From: a virus
Length of the DNA stretch: 56,042 nt
IMG/VR virus record: IMGVR_UViG_3300017973_000002
Coordinates: 1-56,042 of that record
Strand: one strand, 5' to 3'
Part shown: in pieces, positions 16,379-32,927 of the stretch
Numbering within the stretch: position 1 is the first letter of the stretch
Layout: every line of letters begins with the position of its first letter
The notes under the pieces: generated by a model
What the model saw: only the letters and a program-made list of their open reading frames with translations
Database searches by the model: none
Told to the model about the DNA's origin: nothing
Made by a program: the position numbers and the translations under genes

Positions 16379-16648
16379 TTAAACGTAAATTTCTTTTATG
16401 TTCGGATCATCATGTTCATTCGGCATTATCTTGGTGTAATACGGTGGAATCGTTTTGCGAATATCTTCTATTGTATCTGCTAATGTATAACAATTTGTTG
16501 GTTTATCTGTATCAAATAACCTTGCTACAAAGTGTTGTGGAAAATCTAACGGTTTTTCATACACAACAATAATAGGTAGTTCTATATCAGATAAATCTAA
16601 ATCACTAAAATGGTTAATGGGTTCGTTTATCATTTTATTTTTTCCCAT
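16379..16648 (-). CDS. Hypothetical protein (89 aa) co-transcribed with the abrB homologue
   Basis: Track ORF overlapping the abrB-like stop. Weak RBS (alternative ATG at 16633). Confidence 0.55.
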   Translation of the reverse strand: MGKNKMINEPINHFSDLDLSDIELPIIVVYEKPLDFPQHFVARLFDTDKPTNCYTLADTIEDIRKTIPPYYTKIMPNEHDDPNIKEIYV

Positions 16649-16919: not shown

Positions 16920-16950
16920 TTTTCTCCCGCCTTTTTGTTGTAATCGTCTA

Positions 16951-18120: not shown

Positions 18121-18155
18121 AAAAACGCAAAAAAAGAGGGGCATTACACCCCTCT
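18121..18155 (-). terminator. Intrinsic terminator after the giant gene
   Basis: AGAGGGG-CATTACA-CCCCTCT hairpin (18135..18155). On the minus strand it is followed by UUUUUUUGCGUUUUU. Confidence 0.7.
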
Positions 18156-18158
18156 CCT

Positions 18159-21100
18159 TTACTTTTTACGAAGTTGTTTTTCTTGCTCTTTTTTCTGTGC
18201 ATTGTATTGTTGTACCCAGTTCCAAACTTCATTTAAGTTGTTCTCGTCATGTGGCTTATATTTGTTACCAATTCGAGCAATATCCATGCGTGCTTTTTCA
18301 AGTTTTGATAAGTAATCTTTTTTCTCTTGTGGTGAGATATTCGCATTACTCACATCACGCTTCATTGCACCGATAGTTGTCATAGTTGAACGCATACCCT
18401 CATATGATTTTACAATCTCATTTGGGTGATACTTTACTCCGTACCTATCTTTTGCCCCTTCTACGACTTCATGCGCTTTGTCATAAAATTTAGTCGTGTT
18501 ACGTGATCCGAATTCATCATTTGTATAGAACATGTTACCAACCACTGGTGTATCTTTTTGTGGTTTACCCATGAACAGTTCTAGTGCGCCTGCACCGTAT
18601 TTTCCAAAGAACCCTTTGATAAAGTAATCCATTTTCATTGGAGAAATACCGCCAAAATACTTCATATCTTCTGGTGACTTCCCTTTATTCACATAGTCAA
18701 AGTACGCTTTTGCTTGCCACTTACTAAAGCTACTTGTGTTTTCGTCATATTGTTCCAATGTTGGTTTCTTTTGTAAGTAGTCTGGAACAATCGGTGAACC
18801 AAAATACGTTTTGTTGCTATTCAGTTCTAGCATTGTGCTAATCCAAATTGGTACAACTGGCATACTGAACGCTTGGTCAATTGGGTTGAACCAATCCTCA
18901 CCGATTTTACGTGCTTCTTCGCTACCAAACTGAGAATCTAAAAATCTTTCTACATAAGCCATCGGCAGGGCATACATAAATGGTTTTGCAATCGCAATAT
19001 ACCCGAACCCAGTTGGCATTAACCAATAACGGTCACGGAAATATGACGGAATATCATCGTATTTATCATCACGGTCTAATGCTTTCGCTAAGAAGTACAT
19101 CATTAAGGTAATCGGTAGAATTTTCATTGCCATACGCCCAAGCACACGCTTCGGATTTGTTTTAAACTCCGTTGATTCACGGTACATACCTTGTATGCTA
19201 CCATGTGCGAATGATACTGGCATTGTCACTTTACGGAATCCTTGATTTACACCATGTAAACGGAAGTTCGTTGTAATGATATTCGCTTCGTGACCTGCTG
19301 AAATAAAAATCTTTTCAACCTTCTTGCGATCCTCGGCCGATAACTTCTTACGTCCGTCCATAATGTCATTGAATGATAGTCCTTCTTCTTCTGCTAGTTT
19401 CTGAATCATCGCAAACCATTGACCCATGCGGTGAATACTTTCACCTTTATGGAGATACGCACTCGGATTAAAGACTTTAAATAATTTATTATTTTTTAAC
19501 TTAAACAATGTCGGGTCGCCAGTTGGAAGTAAATCTTCCATTTTATTTGCTTTACGGAAATTTCGTAAAACAGATTCAGTTGAAGCGCTCATGCCCCCAC
19601 TATTGATGTATTGTTCAGTCGTATTTTTATCCATTCCAAGTGCAAGTGCTGTACCTTTGAATAAAGAGTATATCGCCCCTCGGCCACTGTTCGTTTGCAT
19701 TGCTGTACCCATTGTGTCACGAACTAATGAATCTGTGATGAATTTTGCGGTTGCGATATTTGTTAAACGTGTAAATCCAGATAGTCTACTTACAATTCGT
19801 AAATATGCTCCAACTGTTAGAGGTTGCATACTTGCTAAAGCATTATAAATATCTGGTGCAACTCGCATGAAAACTGGAATACGTTTACCTTTACTGTCAT
19901 ACTTCCAATTCATCAAGATTGGTTCTTTACTGCTTAACTGGTCACGTTTCATGAAAATCTGGAATACGTGTCCAGATAGAGAACCTTCTACATCATCTGG
20001 GTTAATACCTAAATCTTGATTAAGGATCGTTGCAACAGCTTCATCAATTTGCCCTGCTGAAATTCTTGCTACATAGCTTTGTGAAGGAATGATTTCACCA
20101 AATTGCCCCATACCTTCGGTTCTAAGTGCATTTTCTAAGCTATTTAAGACCCCTTTAAATTCTGCACTCGTTTCTGTTTCAACTAGCTTATACATTGAAG
20201 CTGTTAAGAAGTCTAACACAATCGCTTGTTTACCAGTGTAGGTTTTAACAGTTTGACGTGCTGATTTACGTTGTCCGTCTTGGCCGTTCAATCCTTCTCT
20301 CTTACTTGCATAATATGTTGGAATGTAGAAACTTGAGCCTTGTTTTACTTTTTCTTTTGTAATTTCATCAATGACTGTTCCTTGAAGTGCTTTTTCTAAG
20401 ACGATGTTACTTAGGTTTTCTGTGTACTCTTTAACGATATTTTCAAGGAATGGGAATAATTGTCTGCTATCCTCGATAATTTTCTTCGTTAAATTTTCAC
20501 TCATTGGGTTCACTTCAAACTTCTGTTCACCATCTTGGTTGAGCCTTGAATAACGTTCATTGTATCGGTATGCCTGCATAATAACAGATAATGTTTCAAA
20601 TGCGCTCATATCATTTTCTTTTCCAAGAATTGTATCAAGCGCTTGTTGAATAGCAGGACTTCTCATACCATCAAGTGCTTTACCTTTTAAGGTTAAATTG
20701 ATTTTTTCAAGTCCGTCCATTGCTACTTCTTGCAAGCTACGTGAACTAATTGCGTGAAGGTTCGCAAGTTCTTTAGGATTAGTAATACTTGAATCTTTTT
20801 TGTATTCTTTATAGAAATTTTCATAACGTTTTAGTGTACTTGGTGGAACGACTGTTTTATCTTCACGTTCTATCGCAAGGTATAAATCATGTAAGTGGTC
20901 TGGTAATTCACTGAAATTATCATACTGAATGATATTACGTCCACTGTTATCCTTCGCCCAACCAGTAAAGCTATTAATCGCTTTATCTCGGCCTTCACCT
21001 GCAAGTACCACACGTTTCACTAATTGGAAGTCTTTAATGTCACCATTCGCTTTTTCCATATCTTGAAATGGTATTGTGAAATCAACTAAGTCAAATACTC

Positions 21101-24100
21101 TACGTGCTACGAATCCTTTGACTGTTCCAGTTAATTTTTTACGAATTGGCGCATGTTTATCAACTTTCCCAACTTTGTATTCTTCACCGATCCCTTTTGA
21201 AATCTTATCGTCTTTTGGGAATTTAACTGTTCCAGAACCTCTTGTGAAGCTATCGCCTTCTGTATCCTTCGTTGCCCACTCTTTAGCATCATCAAAAGCA
21301 CTTTTCAGTTCCTTGTTTCCTTCGATGAACGTATCAATGAAAGAAACTGATTGTGGTGCTAGTTGTTTCGCCCCTTCATTGTCGATAAAGTACATCTGGA
21401 ATAGTTCAGCAAGACCTTCTTCTGCAACTTCTACTGGGTTTAATCCAGTTAAATCTGGGTACACTTCATTCGCTACATGTGTTAATTCTTTTTCGAGTGA
21501 TTTAAACACATCGAATCCAACATTATTCACAAACGCATGACCAAGTTCATGTGCCGTTACACGTAAGTTATGAACTTCTACCCCTCTAACGTTACCAGTC
21601 TTTCTGTGCGTATCATACATCGCTCTAACTTGCGAGCCACCACGGACGTATCCTTCACGTAAAACCGTATCAAGTGCATTGGCTATTCTATCACCAATTT
21701 TCTTCGCAACCTTCGGACTAATGACATTCGTTGTACCACCATCAAGACTTGTATCTAATAAGTTTTTGATACGGTCTTTTTTACCTGCTTTTAAGTTTTT
21801 AGCTGTGTTATTTTCACCTTCTGCTTTTGTGCGTTGTTCAGCTTCTTGTTGTCTTATGCTTTCAGCATTGTGTTTACGTTTTGTTGCTTCGCCCTCTGTA
21901 ATCCCTTTACGGTCTGTACGTTGGTAGTTGCGAATAAATTCCGTAACTGGCATTTGTTCTGAATTACCAGTCGTATAAATTTCGTGTTCTGTTTCATTTC
22001 CCGCACCGAATAAATCTGGATCACTAGACTTCGTAATATCTGTGATTTCTGAAACAACTACATCTGTTTTATAGTCTGGTTTATCTTCTTTAAGTTTCTG
22101 CTTATTTTTCGAAGGAACTGCACGGTAATCAATACCAGTCACCGTATAAAGTTTTCCGTCAGCTCTAAATACAGTATCAAAATTATTTGTTAATTCATGT
22201 TGTAAGGCTTCTTGACGTAAGCTAATGACATTGTTTTCAAGTTCTCTTAGCTTATCGCCCTCGGTGAAGTTTTCCGTTGCTTTCTTCTCTGATTCTTTTT
22301 TCGCAACTTCTAGTTCAGCTAACTGTTTTTCAGTGTATGGAGAATAACCTTTCTTCGCTAATGTTTCTACTGTATTTTCAAGACGTGCCATTGTTCCACG
22401 TCCTTCACTAGCAATAATATCACTAGCTTGAGTACGATTATAACCATTTACTGTACCGTCTTTTGCAATTTCACCGATTATTAAACTTTCATCAAGACCT
22501 AATGACTGATATGCGCTTTTACGTCCGTACATTACAACGTCCACACCACCAAGTTGACCAAGAACCTCTTGATAGTTTTGTTTACGTTCTTTTTTACGAA
22601 TGTCTAACACTTTCTCACGTAAGGCTTCTGTACCTTCCTTACGGTCTGTAAATGTTTTTCCGTCCATCACTAAATGAAAATCATCGCCACGAGTTGATTT
22701 AGCTTTTGCTTCTAACTTTTTATCAAAAGCAAGGGTTTCTTCTAAACTAGCTTTCTTCTCTGGGTATTCAGCAATTAGTTTAATTGCTTTCCCTTTTTGC
22801 TTCGTAAACTCACGCTGTAAATCAACTAAACGTCTAATCTCTTTTTCTATTTTCATTAATTCAATCATGCTCGTGTTACCAGTTGCACTCGCTTTGATTT
22901 CAGAAAAACTCATAATCTGTTCAGCGATTTCGTCCATCGAACGAATTTCAGTACCACCAGACATTACCTGTGCGATGAATTTCGCTTTGCTTTCAAGGGT
23001 ATTCCACATTAGGGCATCAAAACTTCCCTCGGTTACATAAGTCTTTATCGCAACATTTGGATTGAAGTTCCCTTGACGGATAATACGTCCCTCACGCTGT
23101 TCGATGTCGGCAGGTCGCCAAGTGGGATCAGCATGATGTAGCATTGTTAGACGTTTTTGTAAGTTCATACCAACGCCCATTTTTCCAGTTGAACCAATTA
23201 ATATTCGAATTTGCCCATCATTAAATAATTGAGATAATTTTTTCTTTTGGTCTGGTTTATTGTAATCGTGGATAAAGGCGATATGGTTTTCATCTATACC
23301 AAGTTCTACCAAACGATCTTTTAGGTTTTGGTACATACTTTTGTCAAACGCACTATCGTTATTACCTTCATCATCTTCTTTTACTTTGTCACTTGCTTTT
23401 GGTACACCAATATCCATGAATACAATCTGCGTACCATTATCAAACTTAAATTCTTTCCCTTCGCCATCAACACCTACATTATCTTTTGTTGTTCGTTTGT
23501 ACTCGTCAACTACTCCATTTGCAATTTCATTTAACTTGCTTCTTGGGTCACTCTCGGCTGTTCCATCAAATAAACGATAATCAAGCGCTAGTTGTTTACC
23601 TTCACCAGTTAGTTTCAGTGGATTGTCTTTAGAAGGGTCGTCAATTCCATTCGCTACAACTTCAGCACGTTTGACTATTATTTCTAAGTAAGTCCGTTGC
23701 TTTTCGTTCATAGGTGTTGTGATGGTAATACGGTCAGCATTTGGTCGTTTTAAATACGGAATATCATCAGCCATTTTTATATCAGCAATTGACTTAAAGA
23801 TACGCATAAGTTCAGCTACACTTGTAAATTTAGAAAAACGAGTTTTCTCAACGAATTTTCCTGCGGTATTTAATTCAACAGAATTTACTGTTGATCCAAA
23901 CATCTGCGCCCAACCATCAAAATGTTCCATACCTAGCTGTTTTAATTCATTTGGTGCAAGATAACGAAGTGTTGTAAACATTTCAGCCATACTATTTGCA
24001 ATGGGTGTACCAGTTGCAAAAACAACTTTACCGTTATTCTTATTCATATAGGAAGTTTTCATATACATATCAAACGCTTGTTGGCTATTTGAATTTGGCA

Positions 24101-27100
24101 AACCACCAATGCTTCCTAGTTTTGTATGGTATTGCAAATTCTTATAGCTGTGTGCTTCATCGACAAATAAAGCATCAACGCCTAATTCTTCAAATGAAAT
24201 CCCTAAATCTTTTTTATCTTTCTGCATTAAGGTTTCAATCTTTGCTTCATGCTTTTCAATCACTTTTTGAATTTCTTTTACTGTTGGCGACTTCCCATCT
24301 TCACTTTGTACGCTTTCAAGGAACGAACGTAATTTTGAAATTTCAGAATGAAGAAACTCTTGTTCATTCTCTGGGTTCAGTCCAAGTCGTTTAAAACTTT
24401 CGTAACTCATAATGACTACATCATAGTCACCATATTTTACATCAGCTAATGAACGGAAACGTAAAGCACGGTTCTTTTCAACTTCCATTTCGTACTGTTC
24501 ATCGCTCCACTTAGCATTACGAGTAATTGTGATCCCTGCAATATCCTTTTCTGTTTTCCCAGTCCCAATGACTTTGATTTTAGCGTTCGGATACGAATGT
24601 TGGAATTCCCTTGCGTGCTGTTCCATCATAAAAGTAGGAACAACCATCATTGGTTTTTTGATAATTCCTAGTCGTCTACCTTCCATGATTGAAACTTGCA
24701 TTTCTAAACTTTTTCCCGCACCCACAACATGTGCCAGTAACGTATTTGCTGAACGTAATATACGCATAACCGCATCTTTTTGGTGCTTGTATAACTTATA
24801 AACTGGGTTTAGGTTCGGAATTTCAACTGGGTTTTCATCAGTTCCATACATTCTCTCGCCATCGTATGTTCTTGGAACAACACTTGTGAATGAATCATTA
24901 TAGAGTTTCGTTAAATTTTCATTTACATCTGGTTCACCAATGACGAATTGTTTTAATTCATTCTGCAACTGTTCAACCACACGGTTAGAGATATTCAAGA
25001 TTTCTTCCCTTGCTTTATCTTGTTCACGCATAGGAGTATTTTCTACATCTAACGGTGGTTTTGATGATTTCATATTCATTAAATCTTCAATGACTTGGAT
25101 TCCAGTTTTTCCATACTTCGCATACTTGTGGCTAATCGCAAATGTTTCATTATTATGATGAGAACGTCCAGTTGTCGATTTTAACCCCCACGTTGCTGTA
25201 TCAAAGTTATGTGTGACTGTTACATTACTTAAACCAAGCGTTTTTTCAATGAATCGTTTGTAAACTTCTTTTGGAATCCACCCTTGTCCAAAACGAATGT
25301 CGTCAGCAATTTGTTCCATTGTTAATTGTGACGGAAGAACCTTTTCAAGTTCTGCAATATTACGGTTTAATCCATTCGCTTTTGCTACTGCTAATTTTTT
25401 AGCGATATTTCCACTTAAATACTCATCGTCCGTTACATACGCTTTTTCTTGTGGGTCATAGTAAATGTGACCATCTTTTTCAAGTTCTGCGATTGTATCG
25501 TCTTTTGATTTACCAAGTAAGTCGGAAACTAATTGAAGGTCTAACTCACCACGATGAACAAGTGATAAATTAAGCGCTTCTTTTACATTACCTTTTGTAT
25601 CCATTACAACATCTGGAAATGTTTGACGCGCCTTGAATAAATCAACTTTTGCCCACTTCTTACCATCTCGTTTTTCAAGTGAACGAAGCATAGCAACTGT
25701 ATGAACATCTTTTTCAAATGGTGTGAGTACCCCTTGTTTATTCATTTCACCGTGGGTTTTCACAAAATCATCATACATTTTATTTAACGCTTCACGTTCT
25801 TTTACCATATCTTCTGACGGAATGGCTTTGTTTTCTTCTTTTGCCATTAAGTCTAAGTAAGATTGGCGAACCTTTAATGAATCTCTTAATACTGGAACGT
25901 GTTCTTTTGCTACTTTATATGGAATCCATTGACCATATGTGTACTGGAAGAATACACCACCACGCTCATGAATTGCCCCTTCATGTTGGCCGATTGTTTC
26001 TTTTGCCCAGTCCTCACTTACAGCGTTATTCACTTTTACTGGCACATCACTTACCGCATTACCGTGAATAAAACGATTTTCAAAAATCTTTTTAATCGTT
26101 TCAAAAGCCTTTTTGAACTTTTCTTCGAATCCATCATTCGTAAACACTAGTTCGTCATGGTAGCGAGTACCTTCTTTCATTCCCCCTGCAAGTTGCTCTG
26201 GGTTTGCAATGAAGTATTCATTTAATTTACTGCGACTTCTACCGTCATAGCTGACATTTTCTGCGATACGTGAAGATGTGTGATTACTACCTTGTACTTT
26301 TTTACGGAAAAATAAAATATCCGTTGCAACATTTGTGCCTGCGTGTTTAAATGCTCCTTGCGGTAAACGGATCGCTTCAAAAAAGTCTGTATTCGCTTCA
26401 ATATATCCACGAACTTGTTGACTTTGCCATTCCTTCCCATCAAGTGAGCTAGTCGAAGTGATTAATAAACCAATACCACCTTCTTTTAAAAGGTCTAGGT
26501 TCTTCACTAGGAAGTAATCATGCACGTTATGTGTCGCATAAGTCATTAAAACTCCGTTATGGTCTAATTTCCCTTTTGGTAGACGGTTGCCTTCTTCGTC
26601 TTTTTTCTGACCTTTCGTTTTGTCCGTGTAAGTTAAATCATTTACTTTCTTATCAACGAACGGAACATTACCAATAACAACATCAAAGCTACCTTCGGTT
26701 GCGCTAAAATTTTGGAATCCCATATGATGATGGGTTTGGTTCGGATACAGTGCCTTTGTAATTCGGTGCGATAAATCATTCAGTTCAACTGTTGTGAATT
26801 TATGTTTCCCTTTTACTTCATCAACTGGGAACGCTCCAACAAACATACCGTTACCAACTGAACTTTCTAAGATTTTTCCACCATCAAAGCCTGCTCCAAG
26901 TAATACATCATACATTTGACTAGCGATTTCGTGACTTGTGTAAAAACTTGTTAAGACTGTATCACGCATACCTTCCCACTCTTGCTGTGTAATCAATCCA
27001 CTTTCTACGTGTGACTGTAATTCAGCATATTGTGGTTTTGATCGGTCAAAATATTCTGGTAAACCGCCCCAACCTTGATATTTAGCTAGAGTATCTAATT

Positions 27101-30100
27101 CCTCTGCTGTACCAAAACGGTCTTCACGTTCTAACATTTTAAGAACGTTAATTGCTTTTATGTTGTTCTCAAAACGTTTTTTTGCATTTGGTTCAAAAAT
27201 ATCCTCTGTAATTACATGGTCTAACGGAACAATTCGCTCATGAGGGATTCCATTATTTGACGGTGACGTGATAGTATCTCCTGCTGATCCATTCGGTTGT
27301 TTTGTCCCTTGATTGGATTCTGTACTAGGCTTGCTGTCATTTGTTCGTTTACTGCCGTCATTAGGTCTTTCTCCGTCTTTTCCAGAAACAGTTTCAGTTG
27401 GTTTGTTTGTTTCAGTTCCTTGTACTGGTTCGGTTGGCGTTCCATTAGGTAGCTTTCCAGTTCCGTTAATGTTGGAAACATTCTTTTCACCCTCTTTATT
27501 TAATCTTTCGAGCGCTTTAGCAATAACTAGTTTTGATGAACGGTCATTAAACATTTGGTCTAAGACTTTCATTTCACCATCACGATTATTTTCCATCGCA
27601 TCATTCATACGGTCTACTACCCAGTCTGTGATATGTCTATTGAATATCATTGACAAGTTATTTACTGAATCATTTGGGTTTTCTTTAACATATGTTTGGA
27701 AGTTAGGAAAGTTTGCTAATTTCTCTGCAAAGTGATTTACACCGTCAGTAAATTTTTCAAGACTTGCTTCTCCGCTTCCCAAATCGGTATTCCCTTTGCC
27801 AGTAACGTCTGCATTTCCTTGTTCATTTCCTTTTGTTTCTGTATCGCTAGGGTTTGGAGTTGATGAAGGCTCATCTCCTTGTACTTCATTGGTTGTGTTC
27901 TCTCTAGGTGTTGGAGAAACATCAGTCCGTACCTCGTTAGCATTGTTTTTCACCTCTTGACCAAGCATTTCTTTTGCTGAATCTAATTCTTGTTGCCTTG
28001 CAAAATTAACTGTATTATAAAAATCCTCTAAATTAAAGAAACCATGCTTTTGAACGAAACTCTGTGCAGATGGAATACCGTATGCTACATCTCTTAATTC
28101 TTGCAATTTCGAACCTTCCATTGCATATTCCATGTTCATGTAATCATTTACATCAGCTACACTAAAGATATGCTTCATTTTCTTTCCATTAATATCTTCA
28201 TTGCGATATGGCATACCTAACAATTCGCCTTTAATTGGGAATATCCATTCTTGCTTAGGTTCTTGCCGTCCGAAACGCTCCATTGGTGTGAATTTAACAG
28301 TTGCAGATTTTTTATTTTCACTGTATGCCATTTCTGGGAATCCACTACCATCAACGCTATCTTCATCTAATTCAGCTTGTTTAAAATCTTCGAATTTATT
28401 ATATCGTTCAGCAGTATCAACAAATGTTTTTAGTTGTGGTTTTTTAAGTGCTTCAACTTTTTCTTTTAAAATTTCAGAAGGAGGAACTACATCGTCCTTA
28501 TTCCAAAATTGCATTGCGCCATGACTTTCCATTCCCGAAACTGTCAATCCTGCGGGTGCTAATACTCTTAACATTTCACCTTCTTTATAATCTGTTTCGA
28601 GTACCCCAGTAACATTACTTATCTTGTTTTTTACAAATGCACCTTTTTTAAATTCAGTTTCATTTTTTGTGACCGTTTCTGACCCTTGACTTTCATTTAC
28701 ACGTCCATTATCTTGCTGTGTAGTTTCATTATAAGTAGGAAGTTTTTTATTAATACGGTCAAGTGCTTTTTGCATACTAATTGTAATGCCATTTGGACGG
28801 TTACGTTCATATGTTACTTTACCAATATGTGCAGACTTACGTTTGAATCTTTGGTCTGTTATTAATCGTTCTAGTTCATGTGGTAAACGGCCATCGAATG
28901 TATAACGAATAATTTTACCATCTTTTTCAAGTTTTCCTTCTTTTGCAAATGGAATTTGAGCGTATCTTTCTGCTTCACTTAGATTTATGTCGTTCATGAT
29001 CTCATTCATACGTGCAGTGTGTTCAGATAACGTATTGATATTGTCATTTATTTGTTTTTCGTCTTGCGCTTTTTTATCTTTCTTAGCTTGTTCTTCTTGA
29101 CGTTTTTCTTCTTCTTTTTGTGCTTGTTCTTCTGCAATTTTACGATTTTCTTCTTCTGTTGCTTGACGTTCTGCTTCTTTCATACGGTTAAAATCTTCCG
29201 CATGTGCAGGGTCTTCCGTTGGTGCATTTTCCCCTAAAATTTGATTACGGATATTGTCAATTTCATGGGTAGTTAAACTCATTTCTTCCCACATTAATTT
29301 CTCTTGAATGTTATTGGTAGACAGATAAGGGTCTTTTTCTAACATATCCTTAACAGCATTATATTCTTCTGAATGGTTCGTTTGAACTTCTTGTCCACCA
29401 TCAATAAAATCTTTTGTCATTTCAATTACATCATGGTTCGTTTCTGTGTAACGGTCTGGATAGTTTTCTACTAATTTTTGTTTCATTTCATCTATGTTCA
29501 TATCAAACATATTGTAAACGTCCCAACCGTGCTGTGTATCTTCTAATACAACAGCTACATGACGATCCATTTTCCGTATCTTATTAACAAGAGATTTTCT
29601 TTCTTTCTTACTTAATGCTTGATAACGGTCATATTCCATTAAATGATGATAAATATGTTCGTCCTCTGGACTAATATCTTCTGCTTTACTGCGTTCTTTT
29701 TCTGCATACGCTTCTTGTCGTTTTTGATTTTCTTCTTCTTGTTTACGTTGTTTTTCTTTTTCAGTTGCTTTATCTTCTTTGTTTTGTTCAACTTGCTTTT
29801 TAAAATTATCTAAATGGGTTTGAAGTCCTTGATTAAACTCGATACCATTCGCTTCTGCAAATGCTTTTAGTTCTTCAAGTTTTTTCATTCGGTGCTGTGG
29901 TGTACGTTTGCCCATTGTGAAAAATTCTTTCTTCATTTCATCAAACTGTGCTTGTGCGCCTTTTTCAGACGTGCGACCAGTTTCGGCTACTTTTCCAGTG
30001 CCTTTTTTATGTTGCCATTCATATAAACGTGATGTTGGAACAACATGTGTACCAATTTTTCCTCCTGCATCAACCGTGATGTAATGTCCACTTGGATCAC

Positions 30101-32927
30101 GTTCGATTACCGTACCTCTTGTTGAATAACCGTCATTTAAAACTTTTGAAGCATTGCGTATTGGTTCTCCTTCTTCATCAAGTGAATCAGTCGTATACGA
30201 TTTCCCTTTAAAATCGTGAATAACTCGCCAACCTACTGTATCCCCTACATGATATGGGTGGTCAATCATTTGTGGTTCGTGGCCGAAACTATCGAAAACT
30301 TGTTTCAATTCTTCATGGTTATCCATTTGTTCAATTGGAATACTGTAAGTTTGATGATTATTTGAATTATGGTCATGCACATGAACTGATTTTTGCGCTT
30401 CAAATGGTCTTGTAGGGTCAATATGAAAATCCTTATCTACCTTAAATGGTATGCCATTTTTTGAAACTATTTGACCTTTAATAAAGAACGGTGAATCTAC
30501 TGTTGGTTCATTTACTGGTTGTTGCTCTTGAACTGGTTGATGAACTTCTTGTACTGGCACATCATGGATTGGTGCATTTGCTAATACTTCTGCATGGTTC
30601 AATTGTTCACCAAAATAAGCATTGTTAATTCGGTTTACGTCACGGTTTGTACGTGCTGTGTCCATTTCGTTTATATAATCATGTTGGTCTTGTGGTGATA
30701 ACTGTGAAAAGAATGGATACAGTGCATCTTCTGTATGGTGAAGTGGATCATCATTTAATTCTGGTTTCATAAATTTTTGAACTAAATCACTTGCACCTTC
30801 TACATGATTAACGTTATTTGGATTACGAAGAATCGCATGTGTTGGAATTTCTTGTGTTGCACCAGTTTTTGTATTTTTAACTGTTGTTTTATCAAGGTTC
30901 GGACTATATCCCATTACTTCTAACTGATTTTTACCAGTCGTTACGGTACTTCCAACTGGAATCAATTGGTCAAGAATGTTCTGTTTATCGTAATGGAATG
31001 GGTCGCTATGATGTGGTTGAACTTGTTCTTGAACTGGTTCTTCATTTGGAATATGGAATCCCATTTCGCCTACTTGCCCATTATCAATTACCGGACTTTG
31101 AACTGGATTATCAAGTACCGTTGCTTCTGGTAGAGAAGCCTGTGGGTGTTCAACTTGTGAACGACCAATTTGGAATTCTGTTCCTAGTGCATTTTGAACA
31201 ACTAACATAGAAGGGTCTTTTGAATCGACTACTGTTAGTGGAATCCCTTTATCTTTCCAGATAACTGTATCGCCATTCTCTACGATTGTACCGACTGGTT
31301 TTCGTGTTGAGTATTGTTGTTCCTCTGCTTTTTGATTCATTTCTTCTTTAATTTTTAAGTCATTAATATAATCATGCGTTGCATTTGTGATAACGTCCTC
31401 GCCACCATTTTGAACTAAGTCCTCGTAAGCGAAGTCATGCGCTTGTTCTTCTGTCATGCCTTGATTTAAACCGTGTTGTTTTGCGGTATCGAAACGTCTT
31501 TTTTGTTCATCTGATAAATTACTTTGTACTTTTTCATCAACATGGGTTAATATGTCATGCGCTGTATGAACACCAGTCGTAGCACCACCCATTAATGCAC
31601 CAAGCATACCTGCTTCAATGGTTGATGGGTCAGTCCATGAGAACGGATCACCTAACGCATTAGCTGAAATTCTATTTTGGTTTGCTTCTTGTATACCTTC
31701 GGTAGCTGAACCACCTGCTGTTTTTAAAGTAACTGCGCCAACCTTACCAACTTTATCAAAGATTTTACTCGTTATAGGAAGATGACCAAAACCAAGTTGC
31801 CCTGCATCGAGTAACGTATTTGTTATCAGATTGTCACGGAAGTCTTTTCCATATGCTTCTGTTGGATTAAGTCCACGTTGTTCTGCTTGGTTATAAACAC
31901 TTCCTGCTTCTTGCATAGAATCTTCCGTGGCCATTACTAAACCACTCGCAAGATGATTAGTAAGAATCCCTGCAAGACCTTGTAGTTTATTAATTTTTGA
32001 TAATCCCCCAAGTAATGCTGAACCAGTCGCATAACTAAGCGCAACGTTTGGTACGATTTCACCACCACGGTCAATTAAGTAATCTGGGTTCATTAAGTCT
32101 TTCATTTGGAACTGGTGATTATTAAATTTATCCAGTCCTTGAAAGCCTTTCATATTGTCATACGCATAGTCAGTGACACTTTTACCCATATCGTGAACTG
32201 TTTGGCTACCCATTTTATCTCCGAGGTATTTAAGTGTACCACCAATACCATCGCCTAGCATTTGGTCTGTTCCTCGTGTCCAACTTGCACCTAAACGTTC
32301 AATTGGACTTCGGTTTTCGGCTTTATCTGGTATAAGAATACCTCTTGCAAGGTCATATCCTGTTTTTAGATAACTTAGTGGGGTTTGTGGCAAGATGTCA
32401 TTCGCCACTGAACCAACTGATTTCACACCAGAATATATTTCAGAACCGACTGATTTCCCAATATCCCCTAATGCTTTCATGTAGCCCCCAACTTCATCTG
32501 TAAGGGTTGCATACGGCTTGTAGCCTTGTTGATAGCTAGATGGGTCACTTGGGACATTGGTATTCCCACTTTTGCTAGATGGTTCATCAAACAATTGGCG
32601 CATTTTATTTTCATAATGCTGTTGTTGTAAATCTTTTGCTTGTTGTTGGTATTGCTGTTGTTCTTTAATTCGTTGCCCTGCTTCATAAACATCATTGGCG
32701 TTTTGTCTTGCTTGTTCATGCGCTTGATTTTCAGCTTGAATTTGCGCTTCTTTCACTCGTTGCCCTGCTTCATAAACGTCATTGCTGTTTTGCCGTGCTT
32801 GTTCATGTGCTTTACTTTCATCTACAAGATCAGAAAACGGCATTTTAATGTTGTCTAAATTAATGTTATCCAAACTGCTTCGTTGTTCTTGGAGTTTCTT
32901 TTTCCAATAATCACTGTATTTTCCCAT
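18159..32927 (-). CDS. Giant 4,922-aa multidomain ('polyvalent', DarB-like) virion/ejection protein. Contains an N6-adenine MTase, an SNF2/DEAH helicase, an HExxH metallopeptidase and a C-terminal hydrophobic module.
   Basis: Single uninterrupted ORF. ATG behind GAAAGGAAGTGG. Motifs listed as separate features. Location in the late structural block after the SLT protein. Confidence 0.9.
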   Translation of the reverse strand: MGKYSDYWKKKLQEQRSSLDNINLDNIKMPFSDLVDESKAHEQARQNSNDVYEAGQRVKEAQIQAENQAHEQARQNANDVYEAGQRIKEQQQYQQQAKDLQQQHYENKMRQLFDEPSSKSGNTNVPSDPSSYQQGYKPYATLTDEVGGYMKALGDIGKSVGSEIYSGVKSVGSVANDILPQTPLSYLKTGYDLARGILIPDKAENRSPIERLGASWTRGTDQMLGDGIGGTLKYLGDKMGSQTVHDMGKSVTDYAYDNMKGFQGLDKFNNHQFQMKDLMNPDYLIDRGGEIVPNVALSYATGSALLGGLSKINKLQGLAGILTNHLASGLVMATEDSMQEAGSVYNQAEQRGLNPTEAYGKDFRDNLITNTLLDAGQLGFGHLPITSKIFDKVGKVGAVTLKTAGGSATEGIQEANQNRISANALGDPFSWTDPSTIEAGMLGALMGGATTGVHTAHDILTHVDEKVQSNLSDEQKRRFDTAKQHGLNQGMTEEQAHDFAYEDLVQNGGEDVITNATHDYINDLKIKEEMNQKAEEQQYSTRKPVGTIVENGDTVIWKDKGIPLTVVDSKDPSMLVVQNALGTEFQIGRSQVEHPQASLPEATVLDNPVQSPVIDNGQVGEMGFHIPNEEPVQEQVQPHHSDPFHYDKQNILDQLIPVGSTVTTGKNQLEVMGYSPNLDKTTVKNTKTGATQEIPTHAILRNPNNVNHVEGASDLVQKFMKPELNDDPLHHTEDALYPFFSQLSPQDQHDYINEMDTARTNRDVNRINNAYFGEQLNHAEVLANAPIHDVPVQEVHQPVQEQQPVNEPTVDSPFFIKGQIVSKNGIPFKVDKDFHIDPTRPFEAQKSVHVHDHNSNNHQTYSIPIEQMDNHEELKQVFDSFGHEPQMIDHPYHVGDTVGWRVIHDFKGKSYTTDSLDEEGEPIRNASKVLNDGYSTRGTVIERDPSGHYITVDAGGKIGTHVVPTSRLYEWQHKKGTGKVAETGRTSEKGAQAQFDEMKKEFFTMGKRTPQHRMKKLEELKAFAEANGIEFNQGLQTHLDNFKKQVEQNKEDKATEKEKQRKQEEENQKRQEAYAEKERSKAEDISPEDEHIYHHLMEYDRYQALSKKERKSLVNKIRKMDRHVAVVLEDTQHGWDVYNMFDMNIDEMKQKLVENYPDRYTETNHDVIEMTKDFIDGGQEVQTNHSEEYNAVKDMLEKDPYLSTNNIQEKLMWEEMSLTTHEIDNIRNQILGENAPTEDPAHAEDFNRMKEAERQATEEENRKIAEEQAQKEEEKRQEEQAKKDKKAQDEKQINDNINTLSEHTARMNEIMNDINLSEAERYAQIPFAKEGKLEKDGKIIRYTFDGRLPHELERLITDQRFKRKSAHIGKVTYERNRPNGITISMQKALDRINKKLPTYNETTQQDNGRVNESQGSETVTKNETEFKKGAFVKNKISNVTGVLETDYKEGEMLRVLAPAGLTVSGMESHGAMQFWNKDDVVPPSEILKEKVEALKKPQLKTFVDTAERYNKFEDFKQAELDEDSVDGSGFPEMAYSENKKSATVKFTPMERFGRQEPKQEWIFPIKGELLGMPYRNEDINGKKMKHIFSVADVNDYMNMEYAMEGSKLQELRDVAYGIPSAQSFVQKHGFFNLEDFYNTVNFARQQELDSAKEMLGQEVKNNANEVRTDVSPTPRENTTNEVQGDEPSSTPNPSDTETKGNEQGNADVTGKGNTDLGSGEASLEKFTDGVNHFAEKLANFPNFQTYVKENPNDSVNNLSMIFNRHITDWVVDRMNDAMENNRDGEMKVLDQMFNDRSSKLVIAKALERLNKEGEKNVSNINGTGKLPNGTPTEPVQGTETNKPTETVSGKDGERPNDGSKRTNDSKPSTESNQGTKQPNGSAGDTITSPSNNGIPHERIVPLDHVITEDIFEPNAKKRFENNIKAINVLKMLEREDRFGTAEELDTLAKYQGWGGLPEYFDRSKPQYAELQSHVESGLITQQEWEGMRDTVLTSFYTSHEIASQMYDVLLGAGFDGGKILESSVGNGMFVGAFPVDEVKGKHKFTTVELNDLSHRITKALYPNQTHHHMGFQNFSATEGSFDVVIGNVPFVDKKVNDLTYTDKTKGQKKDEEGNRLPKGKLDHNGVLMTYATHNVHDYFLVKNLDLLKEGGIGLLITSTSSLDGKEWQSQQVRGYIEANTDFFEAIRLPQGAFKHAGTNVATDILFFRKKVQGSNHTSSRIAENVSYDGRSRSKLNEYFIANPEQLAGGMKEGTRYHDELVFTNDGFEEKFKKAFETIKKIFENRFIHGNAVSDVPVKVNNAVSEDWAKETIGQHEGAIHERGGVFFQYTYGQWIPYKVAKEHVPVLRDSLKVRQSYLDLMAKEENKAIPSEDMVKEREALNKMYDDFVKTHGEMNKQGVLTPFEKDVHTVAMLRSLEKRDGKKWAKVDLFKARQTFPDVVMDTKGNVKEALNLSLVHRGELDLQLVSDLLGKSKDDTIAELEKDGHIYYDPQEKAYVTDDEYLSGNIAKKLAVAKANGLNRNIAELEKVLPSQLTMEQIADDIRFGQGWIPKEVYKRFIEKTLGLSNVTVTHNFDTATWGLKSTTGRSHHNNETFAISHKYAKYGKTGIQVIEDLMNMKSSKPPLDVENTPMREQDKAREEILNISNRVVEQLQNELKQFVIGEPDVNENLTKLYNDSFTSVVPRTYDGERMYGTDENPVEIPNLNPVYKLYKHQKDAVMRILRSANTLLAHVVGAGKSLEMQVSIMEGRRLGIIKKPMMVVPTFMMEQHAREFQHSYPNAKIKVIGTGKTEKDIAGITITRNAKWSDEQYEMEVEKNRALRFRSLADVKYGDYDVVIMSYESFKRLGLNPENEQEFLHSEISKLRSFLESVQSEDGKSPTVKEIQKVIEKHEAKIETLMQKDKKDLGISFEELGVDALFVDEAHSYKNLQYHTKLGSIGGLPNSNSQQAFDMYMKTSYMNKNNGKVVFATGTPIANSMAEMFTTLRYLAPNELKQLGMEHFDGWAQMFGSTVNSVELNTAGKFVEKTRFSKFTSVAELMRIFKSIADIKMADDIPYLKRPNADRITITTPMNEKQRTYLEIIVKRAEVVANGIDDPSKDNPLKLTGEGKQLALDYRLFDGTAESDPRSKLNEIANGVVDEYKRTTKDNVGVDGEGKEFKFDNGTQIVFMDIGVPKASDKVKEDDEGNNDSAFDKSMYQNLKDRLVELGIDENHIAFIHDYNKPDQKKKLSQLFNDGQIRILIGSTGKMGVGMNLQKRLTMLHHADPTWRPADIEQREGRIIRQGNFNPNVAIKTYVTEGSFDALMWNTLESKAKFIAQVMSGGTEIRSMDEIAEQIMSFSEIKASATGNTSMIELMKIEKEIRRLVDLQREFTKQKGKAIKLIAEYPEKKASLEETLAFDKKLEAKAKSTRGDDFHLVMDGKTFTDRKEGTEALREKVLDIRKKERKQNYQEVLGQLGGVDVVMYGRKSAYQSLGLDESLIIGEIAKDGTVNGYNRTQASDIIASEGRGTMARLENTVETLAKKGYSPYTEKQLAELEVAKKESEKKATENFTEGDKLRELENNVISLRQEALQHELTNNFDTVFRADGKLYTVTGIDYRAVPSKNKQKLKEDKPDYKTDVVVSEITDITKSSDPDLFGAGNETEHEIYTTGNSEQMPVTEFIRNYQRTDRKGITEGEATKRKHNAESIRQQEAEQRTKAEGENNTAKNLKAGKKDRIKNLLDTSLDGGTTNVISPKVAKKIGDRIANALDTVLREGYVRGGSQVRAMYDTHRKTGNVRGVEVHNLRVTAHELGHAFVNNVGFDVFKSLEKELTHVANEVYPDLTGLNPVEVAEEGLAELFQMYFIDNEGAKQLAPQSVSFIDTFIEGNKELKSAFDDAKEWATKDTEGDSFTRGSGTVKFPKDDKISKGIGEEYKVGKVDKHAPIRKKLTGTVKGFVARRVFDLVDFTIPFQDMEKANGDIKDFQLVKRVVLAGEGRDKAINSFTGWAKDNSGRNIIQYDNFSELPDHLHDLYLAIEREDKTVVPPSTLKRYENFYKEYKKDSSITNPKELANLHAISSRSLQEVAMDGLEKINLTLKGKALDGMRSPAIQQALDTILGKENDMSAFETLSVIMQAYRYNERYSRLNQDGEQKFEVNPMSENLTKKIIEDSRQLFPFLENIVKEYTENLSNIVLEKALQGTVIDEITKEKVKQGSSFYIPTYYASKREGLNGQDGQRKSARQTVKTYTGKQAIVLDFLTASMYKLVETETSAEFKGVLNSLENALRTEGMGQFGEIIPSQSYVARISAGQIDEAVATILNQDLGINPDDVEGSLSGHVFQIFMKRDQLSSKEPILMNWKYDSKGKRIPVFMRVAPDIYNALASMQPLTVGAYLRIVSRLSGFTRLTNIATAKFITDSLVRDTMGTAMQTNSGRGAIYSLFKGTALALGMDKNTTEQYINSGGMSASTESVLRNFRKANKMEDLLPTGDPTLFKLKNNKLFKVFNPSAYLHKGESIHRMGQWFAMIQKLAEEEGLSFNDIMDGRKKLSAEDRKKVEKIFISAGHEANIITTNFRLHGVNQGFRKVTMPVSFAHGSIQGMYRESTEFKTNPKRVLGRMAMKILPITLMMYFLAKALDRDDKYDDIPSYFRDRYWLMPTGFGYIAIAKPFMYALPMAYVERFLDSQFGSEEARKIGEDWFNPIDQAFSMPVVPIWISTMLELNSNKTYFGSPIVPDYLQKKPTLEQYDENTSSFSKWQAKAYFDYVNKGKSPEDMKYFGGISPMKMDYFIKGFFGKYGAGALELFMGKPQKDTPVVGNMFYTNDEFGSRNTTKFYDKAHEVVEGAKDRYGVKYHPNEIVKSYEGMRSTMTTIGAMKRDVSNANISPQEKKDYLSKLEKARMDIARIGNKYKPHDENNLNEVWNWVQQYNAQKKEQEKQLRKK
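18822..19148 (-). other. Three hydrophobic, transmembrane-like segments near the C-terminus of the giant ORF
   Basis: MAMKILPITLMMYFLAKAL (from aa 4594), YWLMPTGFGYIAIAKPFMYALPMAYV (from aa 4634), FSMPVVPIWISTMLEL (from aa 4687). Confidence 0.55.
21537..21551 (-). other. HExxH zinc-metallopeptidase motif within the giant ORF
   Basis: VTAHELGHAFVNN, with HELGH at aa 3793-3797. Confidence 0.6.
23067..24722 (-). other. SNF2/DEAH-box helicase core within the giant ORF
   Basis: Walker A GAGKS (aa 2736-2740, nt 24708..24722). DEAH (aa 2923-2926, nt 24150..24161). Motif VI QREGRIIRQGN (aa 3277-3287, nt 23067..23099). Confidence 0.85.
26658..26873 (-). other. N6-adenine DNA methyltransferase catalytic core within the giant ORF (motif I to motif IV)
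   Basis: Motif I ILESSVGNGMFVG (aa 2019-2031, nt 26835..26873). Motif IV NVPF, a (D/N)PP(Y/F) variant (aa 2087-2090, nt 26658..26669). Confidence 0.75.
32658..32810 (-). repeat. 87-bp (29-aa) tandem duplication at the N-terminus of the giant protein
   Basis: AHEQARQNSNDVYEAGQRVKE... / AHEQARQNANDVYEAGQRIKE... . CGTTGCCCTGCTTCATAAAC recurs at 32671 and 32758. Confidence 0.85.

Follow-up and report, generated by a model that had tools for sequence, protein, structure and literature searches.

The middle part (aa ~1800-3700) of a giant 4,922-aa phage protein is, as judged from its sequence, genuinely homologous to the methylase-helicase dyad of DarB. We analysed a 56,042-nucleotide window, which covers positions 1 to 56,042 of the IMG/VR virus record IMGVR_UViG_3300017973_000002. 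The reading that we favour, with a probability of roughly 0.65, is that an LPD36-like domain, an N6-adenine methyltransferase and an SNF2 translocase form a DarB-family cargo within a cysteine-free giant virion protein, which would act against restriction in cis. The fusion of a methylase and a helicase in giant virion proteins has already been described (PMC5512222, PMC9144972) and this is not a new kind of system.

18159-32927, minus strand: giant ORF of 4,922 aa, probable polyvalent virion or ejection protein, without stop or cysteine codons

The ORF takes up 26.4% of the 55,919-bp genome, whose GC content is low (36%), and an identical protein is called as a gene on the ENA contig ERZ27251256:k141_1990640. 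Its 4,922 residues include no cysteine, where about 38 would be expected; the other ORFs contain 0.78% cysteine (P ~2e-17).

Identity of the methylase-helicase dyad

The first-pass annotation had placed a DarB-like methyltransferase-helicase core at 22938-27080 (aa 1950-3330 of the giant ORF). The homology was borne out by significant profile matches, of which the strongest was phrog_10089, "DarB-like antirestriction", at aa 1654-3695 (E=0, 1087 bits). The proposed resemblance to large methylase-helicase proteins can be stated as direct homology to P1 DarB, which aligned in three colinear BLASTP segments that correspond to the methylase (4e-19), the SNF2 N-lobe (2e-19) and the helicase C-lobe (2e-13). 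The proposed extent needs a small correction: the PHROG match and the conservation profile against the sibling protein P0134 showed that the homologous core is somewhat wider, at aa ~1800-3700 or roughly positions 21800-27500 of the window. The Pfam scores of the single dyad domains were weak (SNF2-rel_dom 5e-7, Helicase_C 2e-6 and the Eco57I methylase 1.8e-5, the last lying exactly at the gathering cut-off). The family profile matched, in the PDB, the SNF2 ATPases ISWI, INO80, SsoRad54 and RapA (7e-10 to 2e-7) as well as HsdM, M.TaqI and EcoKI M. At E<=1e-10, 2,081 homologues were found.

A regex check recovered all of the previously quoted motifs at their residues: AKYQGWGGLPEYFD at aa 1948-1961, ILESSVGNGMFVG at aa 2019-2031, NVPF at aa 2087-2090, YLSGNIAKKL at 2503, GQGWIP at 2547, GAGKS at 2736-2740, DEAH at 2923-2926 and QREGRIIRQGN at 3277-3287. 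Across the entire giant ORF, NVPF was the sole match to either [DNS]PP[YFW] or N[VIL]PF. It had been regarded as a variant of motif IV, but it proved to be the family-wide form that is found in 37 of 40 homologues and in DarB itself. The GxGG, YTS, motif I, GNVPF, GAGK[ST], DEAH-xYKN, TGTP and QREGRxxRQGN motifs all matched columns that are 80-100% conserved among these 40 homologues. The parts of the dyad, with the evidence for each in brackets, are as follows.

26958-27200, minus strand: helical domain with GWGG (aa 1953-1956), aa ~1910-1990, corresponding to LPD36/GxGU (conserved columns, model)
26148-26957, minus strand: gamma-class N6-adenine DNA methyltransferase domain, aa ~1990-2260 (Pfam, BLASTP, profile, Foldseek)
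24828-26147, minus strand: inter-domain region with conserved YLSGN and GxxWIP, aa ~2261-2700 (columns of alignment A2)
23628-24827, minus strand: SNF2-type ATPase N-lobe and helical insert, aa ~2701-3100 (Pfam, profile, BLASTP, motifs)
22668-23360, minus strand: helicase C-terminal lobe, aa ~3190-3420, with motif VI QREGRIIRQGN at 3277 (Pfam, NCBIfam, BLASTP)

LPD36 and its GxGU signature were described previously (PMC5512222). In the corresponding domain of the giant protein, which was modelled as helices with a pLDDT of 80-95, the Y/G/W/G/G columns are 90-100% conserved among the homologues, and G43, W44 and G45 are invariant in alignment A2. In the methylase domain, the YTS helix occupies aa 1996-1998, motif I (ILESSVGNGMF) starts at aa 2019 and motif IV reads GNVPF at aa 2086-2090. 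The methylase fold is borne out by structure comparison, as the top Foldseek matches of the AF2 model of this domain (pLDDT 79) were all N6-adenine DNA methyltransferases (E 3e-9 to 1e-6). Two of the methylase motifs depart from the common form: a valine in motif I replaces the cysteine that is usual in the family (40 homologues), and the "TP" helix reads "TS", as it does in about half of the homologues. Columns Y594, L595, S596 and W641 of the inter-domain region are invariant in alignment A2, and the precomputed annotation of the source lists two more recent Pfam families, WH_1 and DUF8437, for the giant protein. The SNF2 N-lobe has Walker A GAGKS at 2736, DEAH at 2923 and TGTP at ~2974, while the C-lobe gave partial NCBIfam matches to DISARM DrmD and others.

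Flanking domains and exchange of the middle domains

31128-32450, minus strand: conserved N-terminal domain, aa ~160-600 (exhaustive phmmer search, BLASTP HSP map)
21330-21605, minus strand: probable zincin-like metallopeptidase domain, a tentative assignment, aa ~3775-3866 with HELGH at 3793 (Pfam ATLF 1.5e-3, sub-threshold)
18258-19874, minus strand: C-terminal "chassis" module, aa ~4352-4890 (LPD38, tblastn, hydropathy scan)

The exhaustive phmmer search found the N-terminal domain near the N-termini of over 100 large proteins, and many of these are 2,000-5,700 aa long. It had no match in Pfam or PHROG, and the N-terminal 1,650 aa matched no sequenced phage. HELGH is kept in P0134 and is aligned with AHEMAH of the Vibrio phage gp14; metallopeptidases of polyvalent proteins have been described (PMC5512222). 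Within the C-terminal module, two scans placed Pfam LPD38 at aa 4620-4786 (window positions 18570-19070; 2e-27 and 8e-29), and the hydropathy scan found the sole strongly hydrophobic segment of the giant ORF at aa 4595-4617. The tblastn matches of this module included gp19 of Bacillus phage Pascal, Vibrio phage gp14 and others. Because its model failed (pLDDT 46), an anchoring or ejection role for the module can only be guessed at.

In P0134, a 4,919-aa protein from another metagenome, the dyad is the best-conserved part at 55-79% identity, with a peak in the helicase blocks (79%); the N-terminal third (14-34%) and the C-terminal part (31-52%) are less alike. P0134 keeps all of the dyad motifs, except that GAGKS is conservatively replaced by GAGKT and DEAH by DEAQ. 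Other giants have both protein ends in common and differ in their middle domains, and the cargo exchanged among the members of the chassis sub-family includes ddrB-ParB, the Strawberry-notch helicase and ART. The dyad is absent from the chassis relatives P0127 and P0130, and Pascal gp19 matched in the C-terminal module only, with LPD38 as its only Pfam domain. The protein appears to be modular with the dyad as a cargo cassette, and to belong to a short-tailed (podovirus-like) phage, whose host is probably a member of the Firmicutes.

Gene neighbourhood and virion status

The virion module runs in the order terminase, portal, capsid, adaptor and tail, and the giant ORF is its last gene.

35432-36343, minus strand: 303-aa ORF without cysteine, weakly similar to cell-wall peptidases (PHROG L-alanyl-D-glutamate peptidase 2e-14)
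33394-35415, minus strand: cysteine-free 673-aa ORF with Met/Pro/Gln-rich repeats, candidate companion ejection protein
32990-33415, minus strand: 141-aa ORF with an SLT lytic-transglycosylase domain, just upstream of the giant ORF (Pfam SLT 8e-6; gene call on the ENA contig)
18130-18160, minus strand: strong intrinsic-terminator-like hairpin with a 14-bp stem and a T run, which overlaps the giant ORF stop and precedes the holin gene
17068-18073, minus strand: lysis cassette directly after the giant ORF (Pfam)
17660-18073, minus strand: holin, Phage_holin_4_1
17068-17667, minus strand: endolysin, Amidase_3

The gene calls on the ENA contig leave an 85-nt gap at the hairpin. Family scans gave no match for the 673-aa ORF, and by synteny the 303-aa ORF sits where Pascal has its "lytic tail fiber protein". 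No spanin was found in this genome. A ParM-like partition gene is present and suggests a plasmid-prophage stage.

The earlier proposal that the dyad is fused into an ejection protein is supported by four independent, indirect lines of evidence. The first is the gene position. The second is the domain order SLT ... MTase ... helicase ... LPD38, which is that of BcepIL02 gp70 (with SLT as a separate ORF here); JC1 gp69, a homologue of gp70, was detected in CsCl-purified virions by mass spectrometry with 51 unique peptides (PMC9144972). The third is the LPD38 C-terminal module, which also occurs in the product of the corresponding final structural gene in other podoviruses, including Pascal gp19 at the same gene position. 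The fourth is the lack of cysteine, which also applies to BcepIL02 gp68-70, Pascal gp19, Vibrio gp14 and N4 gp50/51/52; such suppression of cysteine has been published as a mark of the proteins that N4-like phages eject (PMC11445570). From these lines, we infer that the giant protein is packaged and ejected.

Discussion

The dyad of the giant protein has the same parts in the same order as P1 DarB (2,255 aa), i.e., a GxGG helical domain, a GNVPF N6-adenine methylase, an SNF2 lobe with GxGK[ST]/DExH and a helicase C-lobe, although the two are only 23-31% identical. As a head protein, DarB gives protection against EcoB/EcoK, and Dar acts only in cis, being co-ejected with the DNA (PMC5512222, PMC9024508, PMC12707154, PMC12810830). 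Late synthesis and carriage in the virion were shown for DarB and would be expected of the giant protein. DarB is, however, a stand-alone myovirus protein with nine cysteines, whereas here a cysteine-free protein holds the dyad in its middle (aa ~1800-3700) between N- and C-terminal modules of its own. The N-terminal 30 residues of DarB direct it to the head, and it requires DarA, Hdf, DdrA, DdrB and Ulx. The general family scans gave no match to DarA, Hdf, DdrA or Ulx here, and the Bcep22-like phages lack these four as well (PMC9144972).

The giant "DarB-like antirestriction" virion proteins of the Bcep22-like podoviruses Bcep22 (gp75), BcepIL02 (gp70) and JC1 (gp69), as well as of PEp14, SopranoGao, VvAW1 and Itty13-type phages, are also close to the present one. 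They have 4,500-4,700 aa compared to 4,922 aa here, occupy more than 20% of the genome as the present one does, and are likewise cysteine-free and encoded by the last virion-module gene before the lysis genes, with colinear domains, in which the MTase is followed by SNF2/helicase and, near the C-terminus, by LPD38. The dyad is 29% identical to that of BcepIL02 gp70 over 1,663 aligned columns (E 1e-169), but its flanks have no BLASTP similarity to gp70 and the C-terminal relation is seen only via Pfam LPD38. SLT is fused to the N-terminus in gp70 (aa 77-168) but has an upstream ORF of its own here; no LPD3 was detected in the present protein, and the zincin-like HELGH domain was undetected in gp70 using Pfam. 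A low-GC genome, an amidase endolysin and the lack of a detected spanin further distinguish this phage from the Bcep22-like phages. The polyvalent dyad proteins of Iyer, Burroughs, Anand, de Souza and Aravind (2017; PMC5512222) match point by point, with LPD36 (GxGU), an EcoKI/TaqI-like methylase and a SWI2/SNF2 ATPase; they also unite these with LPD domains and a zincin metallopeptidase in a single polypeptide encoded by a late gene, and nothing essential differs. The N4 virion RNA polymerase gp50 is similarly giant (3,500 aa), cysteine-free and multi-domain; it leaves the virion by way of a short tail, is preceded by smaller ejection proteins that likewise lack cysteine and has a HExxH metallopeptidase in its C-terminal region, as identified by Iyer et al. 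(PMC5512222). Its cargo, however, is an RNA polymerase rather than a methylase-helicase. Sequence comparison revealed no similarity, and gp50 had no LPD38 match.

A different use of the same parts, which we consider unlikely, would be genome internalisation: a giant protein anchored in the envelope by its hydrophobic LPD38 module would reel in the DNA using the SNF2 translocase, with methylation as a by-product or secondary benefit, and thus do the job of the virion RNA polymerase in N4 or the host polymerase in T7. SNF2 enzymes are dsDNA translocases (PMC5512222), and the ejected N4 giant stays membrane-anchored and transcriptionally active there (PMC13434306). The one hydrophobic segment falls within the C-terminal module, conservation is highest in the helicase blocks, and such a motor would fit the cis-only action of Dar. 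However, P0127 and P0130 lack the dyad and Pascal gp19 shares the C-terminal module only; therefore, such a motor is no general need for DNA entry in the chassis family. Moreover, P1 darB mutants are established to be viable on non-restricting hosts (Iida 1987, as cited in PMC12707154), and conservation of the methylase motifs equals that of the motor motifs.

Somewhat more doubtful still is epigenetic self-marking or regulation, in which the incoming genome would be marked against host DNA or for early transcription, replication or plasmid-prophage maintenance. The ParM-like gene would suit this, but anti-restriction is the only genetic phenotype known for a member of the family, and no methyl-dependent nuclease or reader was present among the annotated ORFs of the window. 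An offensive, restriction-like enzyme (type ISP, IIG or III-like) against host or competitor DNA is very improbable: the Pfam match is the Eco57I (type IIG) methylase domain, BsaXI and BpuSI are among the Foldseek matches and the coupling of methylase and helicase recalls type I and type III enzymes, but the matched portions of the type IIG enzymes are methylase domains, no specificity subunit was found and Pfam, PHROGs and NCBIfam detected no nuclease domain in all 4,922 aa. An equally improbable reading is a catalytically dead relic that serves only as a bulk internal head protein or scaffold; the family's usual motif I cysteine is lost and no paper in the literature found shows a methylase activity of DarB, but all of the catalytic motifs of both enzymes are intact and lie in the best-conserved segment of two giants that are otherwise 14-50% identical.

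For the DarB-family cargo acting in cis, we infer methylation, ATP-driven translocation and an anti-restriction outcome from the sequence. The giant protein would be made late and packed in the capsid and, at infection, may leave loosely folded through the tail together with the DNA, the N-terminal and C-terminal (LPD38) modules serving packaging, ejection or envelope anchoring. The HELGH metallopeptidase may free the modules by self-cleavage. In the cell, the ATP-using SNF2 motor would track along the incoming genome, while the linked methylase would modify adenines and/or the motor would displace host enzymes. Against this reading, one review favours physical shielding as the hypothesis for Dar (PMC12707154), and no paper in the literature found shows DNA methylation or translocation by DarB or any giant homologue. 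Under the favoured reading, the incoming DNA would be protected in cis against type I-like restriction even before the first phage gene is expressed.

Identity of the methylase-helicase dyad

The segment at 22938-27080 (aa 1950-3330), which the first-pass annotation had read as a DarB-like methyltransferase-helicase core, lies within a single uninterrupted ORF of 4,922 codons (18159-32927, minus strand; hereafter the giant), and five independent lines of evidence, i.e., profiles, BLASTP, motifs, PDB profile matches and an AlphaFold2/Foldseek model, showed that it is a true DarB-type methylase-helicase. In a PHROGs profile search, phrog_10089 ('DarB-like antirestriction') covered aa 1654-3695 (E = 0, 1087 bits). 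The Pfam SNF2-rel_dom and Helicase_C domains scored above their cut-offs and the Eco57I methylase domain exactly at its cut-off. The similarity to P1 DarB that had been anticipated was significant, as BLASTP against this protein (from NC_005856) returned three colinear segments that corresponded to the methylase (4e-19), the SNF2 N-lobe (2e-19) and the C-lobe (2e-13).

A regular-expression check recovered all of the previously quoted motifs at the quoted residues: motif I, ILESSVGNGMFVG, from aa 2019; NVPF at aa 2087, which is the sole motif-IV-like match within the giant ORF; GAGKS at aa 2736; DEAH at aa 2923 and QREGRIIRQGN at aa 3277, together with the flanking segments AKYQGWGGLPEYFD from aa 1948, YLSGNIAKKL from aa 2503 and GQGWIP from aa 2547. 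In an alignment of the giant with 40 homologues, taken from the 2,081 that the core search had yielded, its YxGWGG, YTS, LEPSxGxGxF, GNVPF, GAGK[ST], DEAHxYKN, TGTP and QREGRxxRQGN signatures fell in columns that were 80-100% conserved; motif I of the giant reads ILESSVGNGMF and motif IV reads GNVPF. The latter had previously been considered to be a variant, but GNVPFG was found in 37 of the 40 homologues and P1 DarB likewise has GNVPF, which makes it the normal motif IV of the family. The SNF2 motifs GAGKS, DEAH, TGTP and QREGRIIRQGN also agreed with the family consensus. The 'TP' motif that caps the helix ahead of the methylase core, where it touches the catalytic Asn, is represented in the giant by YTS-H, and because the 40 homologues comprised 25 with TS, 14 with TP and one with TQ, this motif appears to be variable within the family. 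A lone match to the PLxRFG motif (P-M-E-R-F-G, aa 1548) was disregarded as it had no profile support.

The segment that precedes motif I, which had been noted for its likeness to large methylase-helicase proteins, does resemble the family and corresponds to the GxGU signature of LPD36, the helical domain that always precedes the methylase of the dyad (Iyer et al., PMC5512222). The columns of GWGG at aa 1953-1956 were invariant in 27 sequences and 90-100% conserved in 40, and the region was modelled as helices. An N-terminal LPD36 helical domain with GxG[GAS] is thus present, as judged from motif and position rather than from an LPD36 profile.

Solved structures were reached by the family profile only, and a phmmer search of the PDB with the entire ORF gave no match. 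Among the SNF2 ATPases the profile matched ISWI (7e-10) as well as INO80, SsoRad54 and RapA, and among the N6-adenine methylases it matched HsdM (7eew, 2e-6), M.TaqI (2.5e-4) and the M subunit of EcoKI (2e-3). An AlphaFold2 model of aa ~1910-2576 had a mean pLDDT of 79, and its best PDB matches in Foldseek were almost exclusively N6-adenine DNA methyltransferases (E 3e-9 to 1e-6), including type I HsdM subunits, BsaXI, PacII, M.BseCI, CamA and M.TaqI. Judging from sequence and model, the methylase is predicted to be of the EcoKI/TaqI-like (gamma-class) N6-adenine type, in which motif I is a SAM motif and motif IV is of the NPP[YF] type, and to be followed on its C-terminal side by a fused, putative ATPase of the SWI2/SNF2 clade. 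A methylase that is joined to a helicase is also what a restriction enzyme of type I, III, ISP or IIG would offer, but such an enzyme would bring a nuclease and a specificity determinant, and scans of the 4,922 aa, ~2,000 of which have no family match, detected neither a nuclease nor an HsdS-type family.

Genome and gene neighbourhood

Bases 1-123 are identical to 55920-56042 (100% over 123 nt), and therefore the assembly is that of a closed circular (or terminally redundant) genome of 55,919 bp, a complete phage genome, of which the giant ORF occupies 26.4%. The main features are as follows.

Features of the window (coordinates, strand, feature)
50885-51349, minus, small terminase
49381-50784, minus, large terminase
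45588-47582, minus, portal
43439-44602, minus, major capsid protein
42326-42946, minus, SU10-type adaptor (podovirus type)
Between the adaptor and the peptidase-like ORF, minus, tail and internal-virion-like genes
35432-36343, minus, peptidase-like ORF, 303 aa, cysteine-free
33394-35415, minus, repeat-rich ORF, 673 aa, cysteine-free
32990-33415, minus, separate SLT lytic transglycosylase ORF, 141 aa, with a 22-nt overlap with the end of the upstream ORF
18159-32927, minus, giant ORF, 4,922 aa
18130-18160, both strands, strong terminator-like hairpin, 14 bp, GC-rich, T runs on both sides, overlapping the stop codon of the giant
After the terminator, minus, holin and then Amidase_3 endolysin
~16500-16930 (19009-19293 on contig L027), minus, small AbrB/MazE-antitoxin-like ORF directly after the endolysin
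15057-15959, with 14004-15079, plus (opposite to most genes), actin-like (ParM/ALP_N) partition ATPase
3005-3532, minus, RNA polymerase sigma-factor-like protein (PHROG 8e-27)

The giant, which is longer than 3,500 aa, is the last gene of the virion module and adjoins the lysis genes. The hairpin at 18130-18160 looks like a bidirectional terminator that divides the virion module from the lysis cassette, and in BcepIL02 bidirectional terminators are annotated at the same place. No tape-measure-like gene was seen within the window, and a scan for promoter-like sites gave fewer of them than did shuffled sequence, so that no promoter is claimed. A 154-aa plus-strand ORF inside the giant gene (21076-21540) was taken to be spurious, as there is no gene call for it on the source contig. 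The remaining genome encodes RecE/Erf recombination, DnaD/DnaC-type replication, the sigma factor and the ParM-like partition ATPase. The sigma-factor-like gene adjoins genes for a Holliday-junction resolvase and an NTP pyrophosphohydrolase, and the AbrB/MazE-like ORF is possibly a regulator or an antitoxin. An SLT ORF upstream of an LPD38 protein was also observed on another contig (L008).

Several repeats were recorded in this part of the genome. A 76-nt tandem duplication with 86% identity (32661-32736 and 32748-32823) at the extreme N-terminus of the giant (aa ~36-90) encodes two copies of 'HEQARQN(S/A)NDVYEAGQR(V/I)KE', short in-frame tandem repeats at 35030-35389 (minus strand) form a 'PNMGQMRP' array, rich in Met, Pro, Gln and Asn, in the N-terminal part of the 673-aa ORF, and a further in-frame array (36004-36178, minus strand) lies within the peptidase-like ORF of 303 aa.

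No match was obtained when the core and 33000-56042 were compared by megablast with 50,697 phage records. [quoted passage not shown] The low GC content of the genome (36%), an amidase endolysin for which no spanin was detected and the DnaD-type replication genes suggest a Firmicutes host. The ParM-like gene, which is also present on a related 48-kb contig (L028), suggests a plasmid-prophage (phage-plasmid) lifestyle such as that of P1.

Architecture of the giant and its relatives

The domain order of the giant is methylase, SNF2, Helicase_C, a probable zincin and LPD38 (Pfam, aa 4620-4786, E 2e-27). The zincin is probable on the basis of HELGH at aa 3793 and a sub-threshold match of the anthrax-lethal-factor type (1.5e-3). 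The giant is a polyvalent protein, since a single ORF within the structural module combines a methylase with an SNF2 ATPase, a probable zincin and LPD38. Pfam scans found no SLT domain inside it. Its C-terminal ~540 aa are similar to the C-terminal ends of the equivalent large proteins in other podoviruses (Bacillus phage Pascal gp19, Vibrio phage 1.211.A gp14, E. coli PTXU04, Thalassomonas BA3 and a pelagiphage), and Pascal gp19 lies between a 'lytic tail fiber protein' and a holin, which is the position of the giant itself. The AlphaFold2 model of this C-terminal module had a pLDDT of 46, which is too low for a fold search.

The word-indexed core search returned nothing above 36% identity, but the reading that the giant has no close relative was overturned by an exhaustive representative search; since the word-indexed search had missed both an identical protein and the sibling P0134, absence from it is uninformative. 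With aa 1-1200 as the query, the exhaustive search found the identical protein on ENA contig ERZ27251256:k141_1990640, the 4,919-aa P0134 (55-79% identical in the core) on a syntenic 48-kb contig (SRR13007714) with a holin, an amidase, a ParM-like gene and YqaJ/RecT, and more than 100 further proteins, many of them 2,000-5,700 aa long, that have an N-terminal domain (aa ~160-600) in common with the giant. When the first 1,650 aa were compared with phages by tblastn, no match was obtained. The shared domain (31128-32450; relatives P0127-P0252) is Gly/Ala-rich and conserved, has no Pfam or PHROG match, and its owners often also have the C-terminal LPD38 module.

Between their ends these proteins vary: P0127 has a ParB domain of the DdrB type, P0128 a DdrB-ParB domain with a different methylase and a Strawberry-notch-type helicase, and P0123 an ADP-ribosyltransferase (ART). 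Based on these differences, the dyad appears to be a cargo cassette in a conserved chassis, which is the sense of 'polyvalent protein' in Iyer et al. 2017 (PMC5512222), and sequence comparison points to an unnamed chassis family with exchangeable cargo between shared ends.

The possibility that the dyad is a dead relic inside such a chassis is disfavoured by the distribution of constraint. In 200-residue blocks, the identity between the giant and P0134 was 14-34% up to aa 1800, 55-79% from there to aa 3400 and 31-52% in the remainder, and at the sequence level the dyad is therefore the most constrained part of the giant. P0134 also keeps all of the catalytic motifs, with GAGKT for GAGKS and DEAQ for DEAH as the sole changes.

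Absence of cysteine

The giant contains no cysteine codon. In the 29 further ORFs that reach 150 aa or more, 70 of 9,002 residues are Cys (0.78%), a rate at which ~38 would be expected in the giant (P ~2e-17). On the same strand, the remaining two frames contain 77 and 217 TGT/TGC triplets. The 673- and 303-aa ORFs a short distance upstream of the giant (33394-35415 and 35432-36343, minus strand) are also devoid of cysteine, as are BcepIL02 gp68, gp69 and gp70, Pascal gp19, Vibrio gp14, the protein P0121 and the N4 ejection proteins gp50, gp51 and gp52. Among the chassis relatives with a length of 2,000 aa or more, 38 of 49 are free of cysteine, and over the relatives as a whole its frequency is 0.03%. 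P1 DarB has nine cysteines, the median for the Firmicutes homologues of ~2,300 aa is 0.7% and the ICE-type DarB homologues also contain cysteine.

Cysteine suppression is a conserved trait of the ejection operon of the Schitoviridae (N4-like phages), for which passage through the periplasm was offered as an explanation (PMC11445570). By this analogy, the observed absence of cysteine provides independent compositional evidence that the giant would be an ejected protein, and its two upstream neighbours (673 and 303 aa) are probably ejected as well. The periplasm explanation is a poor fit for phages of Gram-positive hosts, i.e., Pascal and probably the phage studied here. In the Bcep22-like phage JC1, mass spectrometry of virions purified in CsCl identified the homologue gp69 from 51 unique peptides (PMC9144972), and both the gene position and the zero cysteine count lend indirect support to the view that the giant, too, would be physically present in virions.

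Comparison with known systems

The closest named relatives are the giant 'DarB-like' virion proteins of the Bcep22 type, with P1 DarB as the closest where the dyad is taken by itself. Both are covered by a published concept, the methylase-helicase dyad of polyvalent proteins. BcepIL02 gp70 (4,667 aa, annotated as 'DarB-like antirestriction') is likewise the last gene of the virion module before the lysis genes. Pfam places its domains in the order SLT, methylase, Helicase_C, LPD3 and LPD38, with LPD38 at aa 4348-4552 (6e-36) compared with aa 4620-4786 (2e-27) in the giant, and the two dyads are 29% identical over 1,663 columns (E 1e-169). In the Bcep22-like phages the SLT is fused to the N-terminus of the giant, whereas here it is a separate upstream ORF. 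The giant further differs from these relatives in its orphan N-terminal third, its zincin-like domain and its very low identity (at most 36% to the great majority of homologues), and its phage differs in its low-GC genome, its probably Gram-positive host and its ParM-like partition gene. These differences leave the kind of system unchanged, and standard PHROGs annotation would label the giant gene correctly.

Proposed mechanism

Homology, intact motifs, a modelled methylase fold, late-module position, a shared chassis, cysteine suppression and differential conservation are established. P1 DarB is a head protein that is present in ~40 copies per virion, is believed to enter the cell and protects against EcoB/EcoK (PMC9024508; PMC12810830), and the Dar system is active only in cis (PMC12707154). 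Such cis protection of co-injected DNA from type I restriction was demonstrated for P1 only (PMC5512222; PMC9024508; PMC12707154). Iyer et al. proposed that the injected dsDNA serves as a track for the SNF2 motor and is modified by the methylase during translocation (PMC5512222). The giant ejected enzyme of N4 is thought to travel loosely folded, like beads on a string, and to refold in the cell (PMC13434306). In the papers that were consulted, we found no demonstration of methyltransferase or translocase activity for any member of the DarB family.

In our proposal, the giant would be packaged, ejected and refolded, after which the dyad would track along the incoming genome and either methylate it or shield it from restriction of a type I-like kind; the polyprotein may be cleaved into its modules by the HELGH peptidase. 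Rival readings of the dyad, as an import motor, an epigenetic marker, a restriction-like enzyme or a dead relic, are considered less probable. In a bolder reading, the SNF2 motor would be retained by the chassis at the entry pore, so that the genome would be actively pulled in and methylated base by base by a co-translocational 'import and mark' machine as opposed to a freely diffusing anti-restriction factor. This reading further supposes an unnamed chassis family (N-terminal aa ~160-600, C-terminal metallopeptidase-LPD38, exchangeable cargo) and a phage-plasmid of a probably Gram-positive host to which the periplasm explanation for cysteine loss would not apply. Taken jointly, it is unlikely, and we would give it roughly one chance in eight.

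Significance

The module is typical for its protein class and the finding mainly confirms a correct annotation. It is a well-resolved example, i.e., an uncultured low-GC phage whose circular genome of 55.9 kb is complete and has a quarter of its coding capacity in what would be one injected protein, and fragments of aa ~1800-3700 could be used to ask whether DarB-type proteins methylate DNA and translocate on it. The cysteine-free signature carries the published N4-like rule to unrelated giants, including those of phages with Gram-positive hosts. Among the sibling giants both ends are kept and the middle is swapped (DarB dyad, DdrB-ParB, Strawberry-notch helicase, ART), which supports the idea that the multi-protein Dar system of P1 and the podoviral giants draw on a shared toolbox of injected counter-defence domains.
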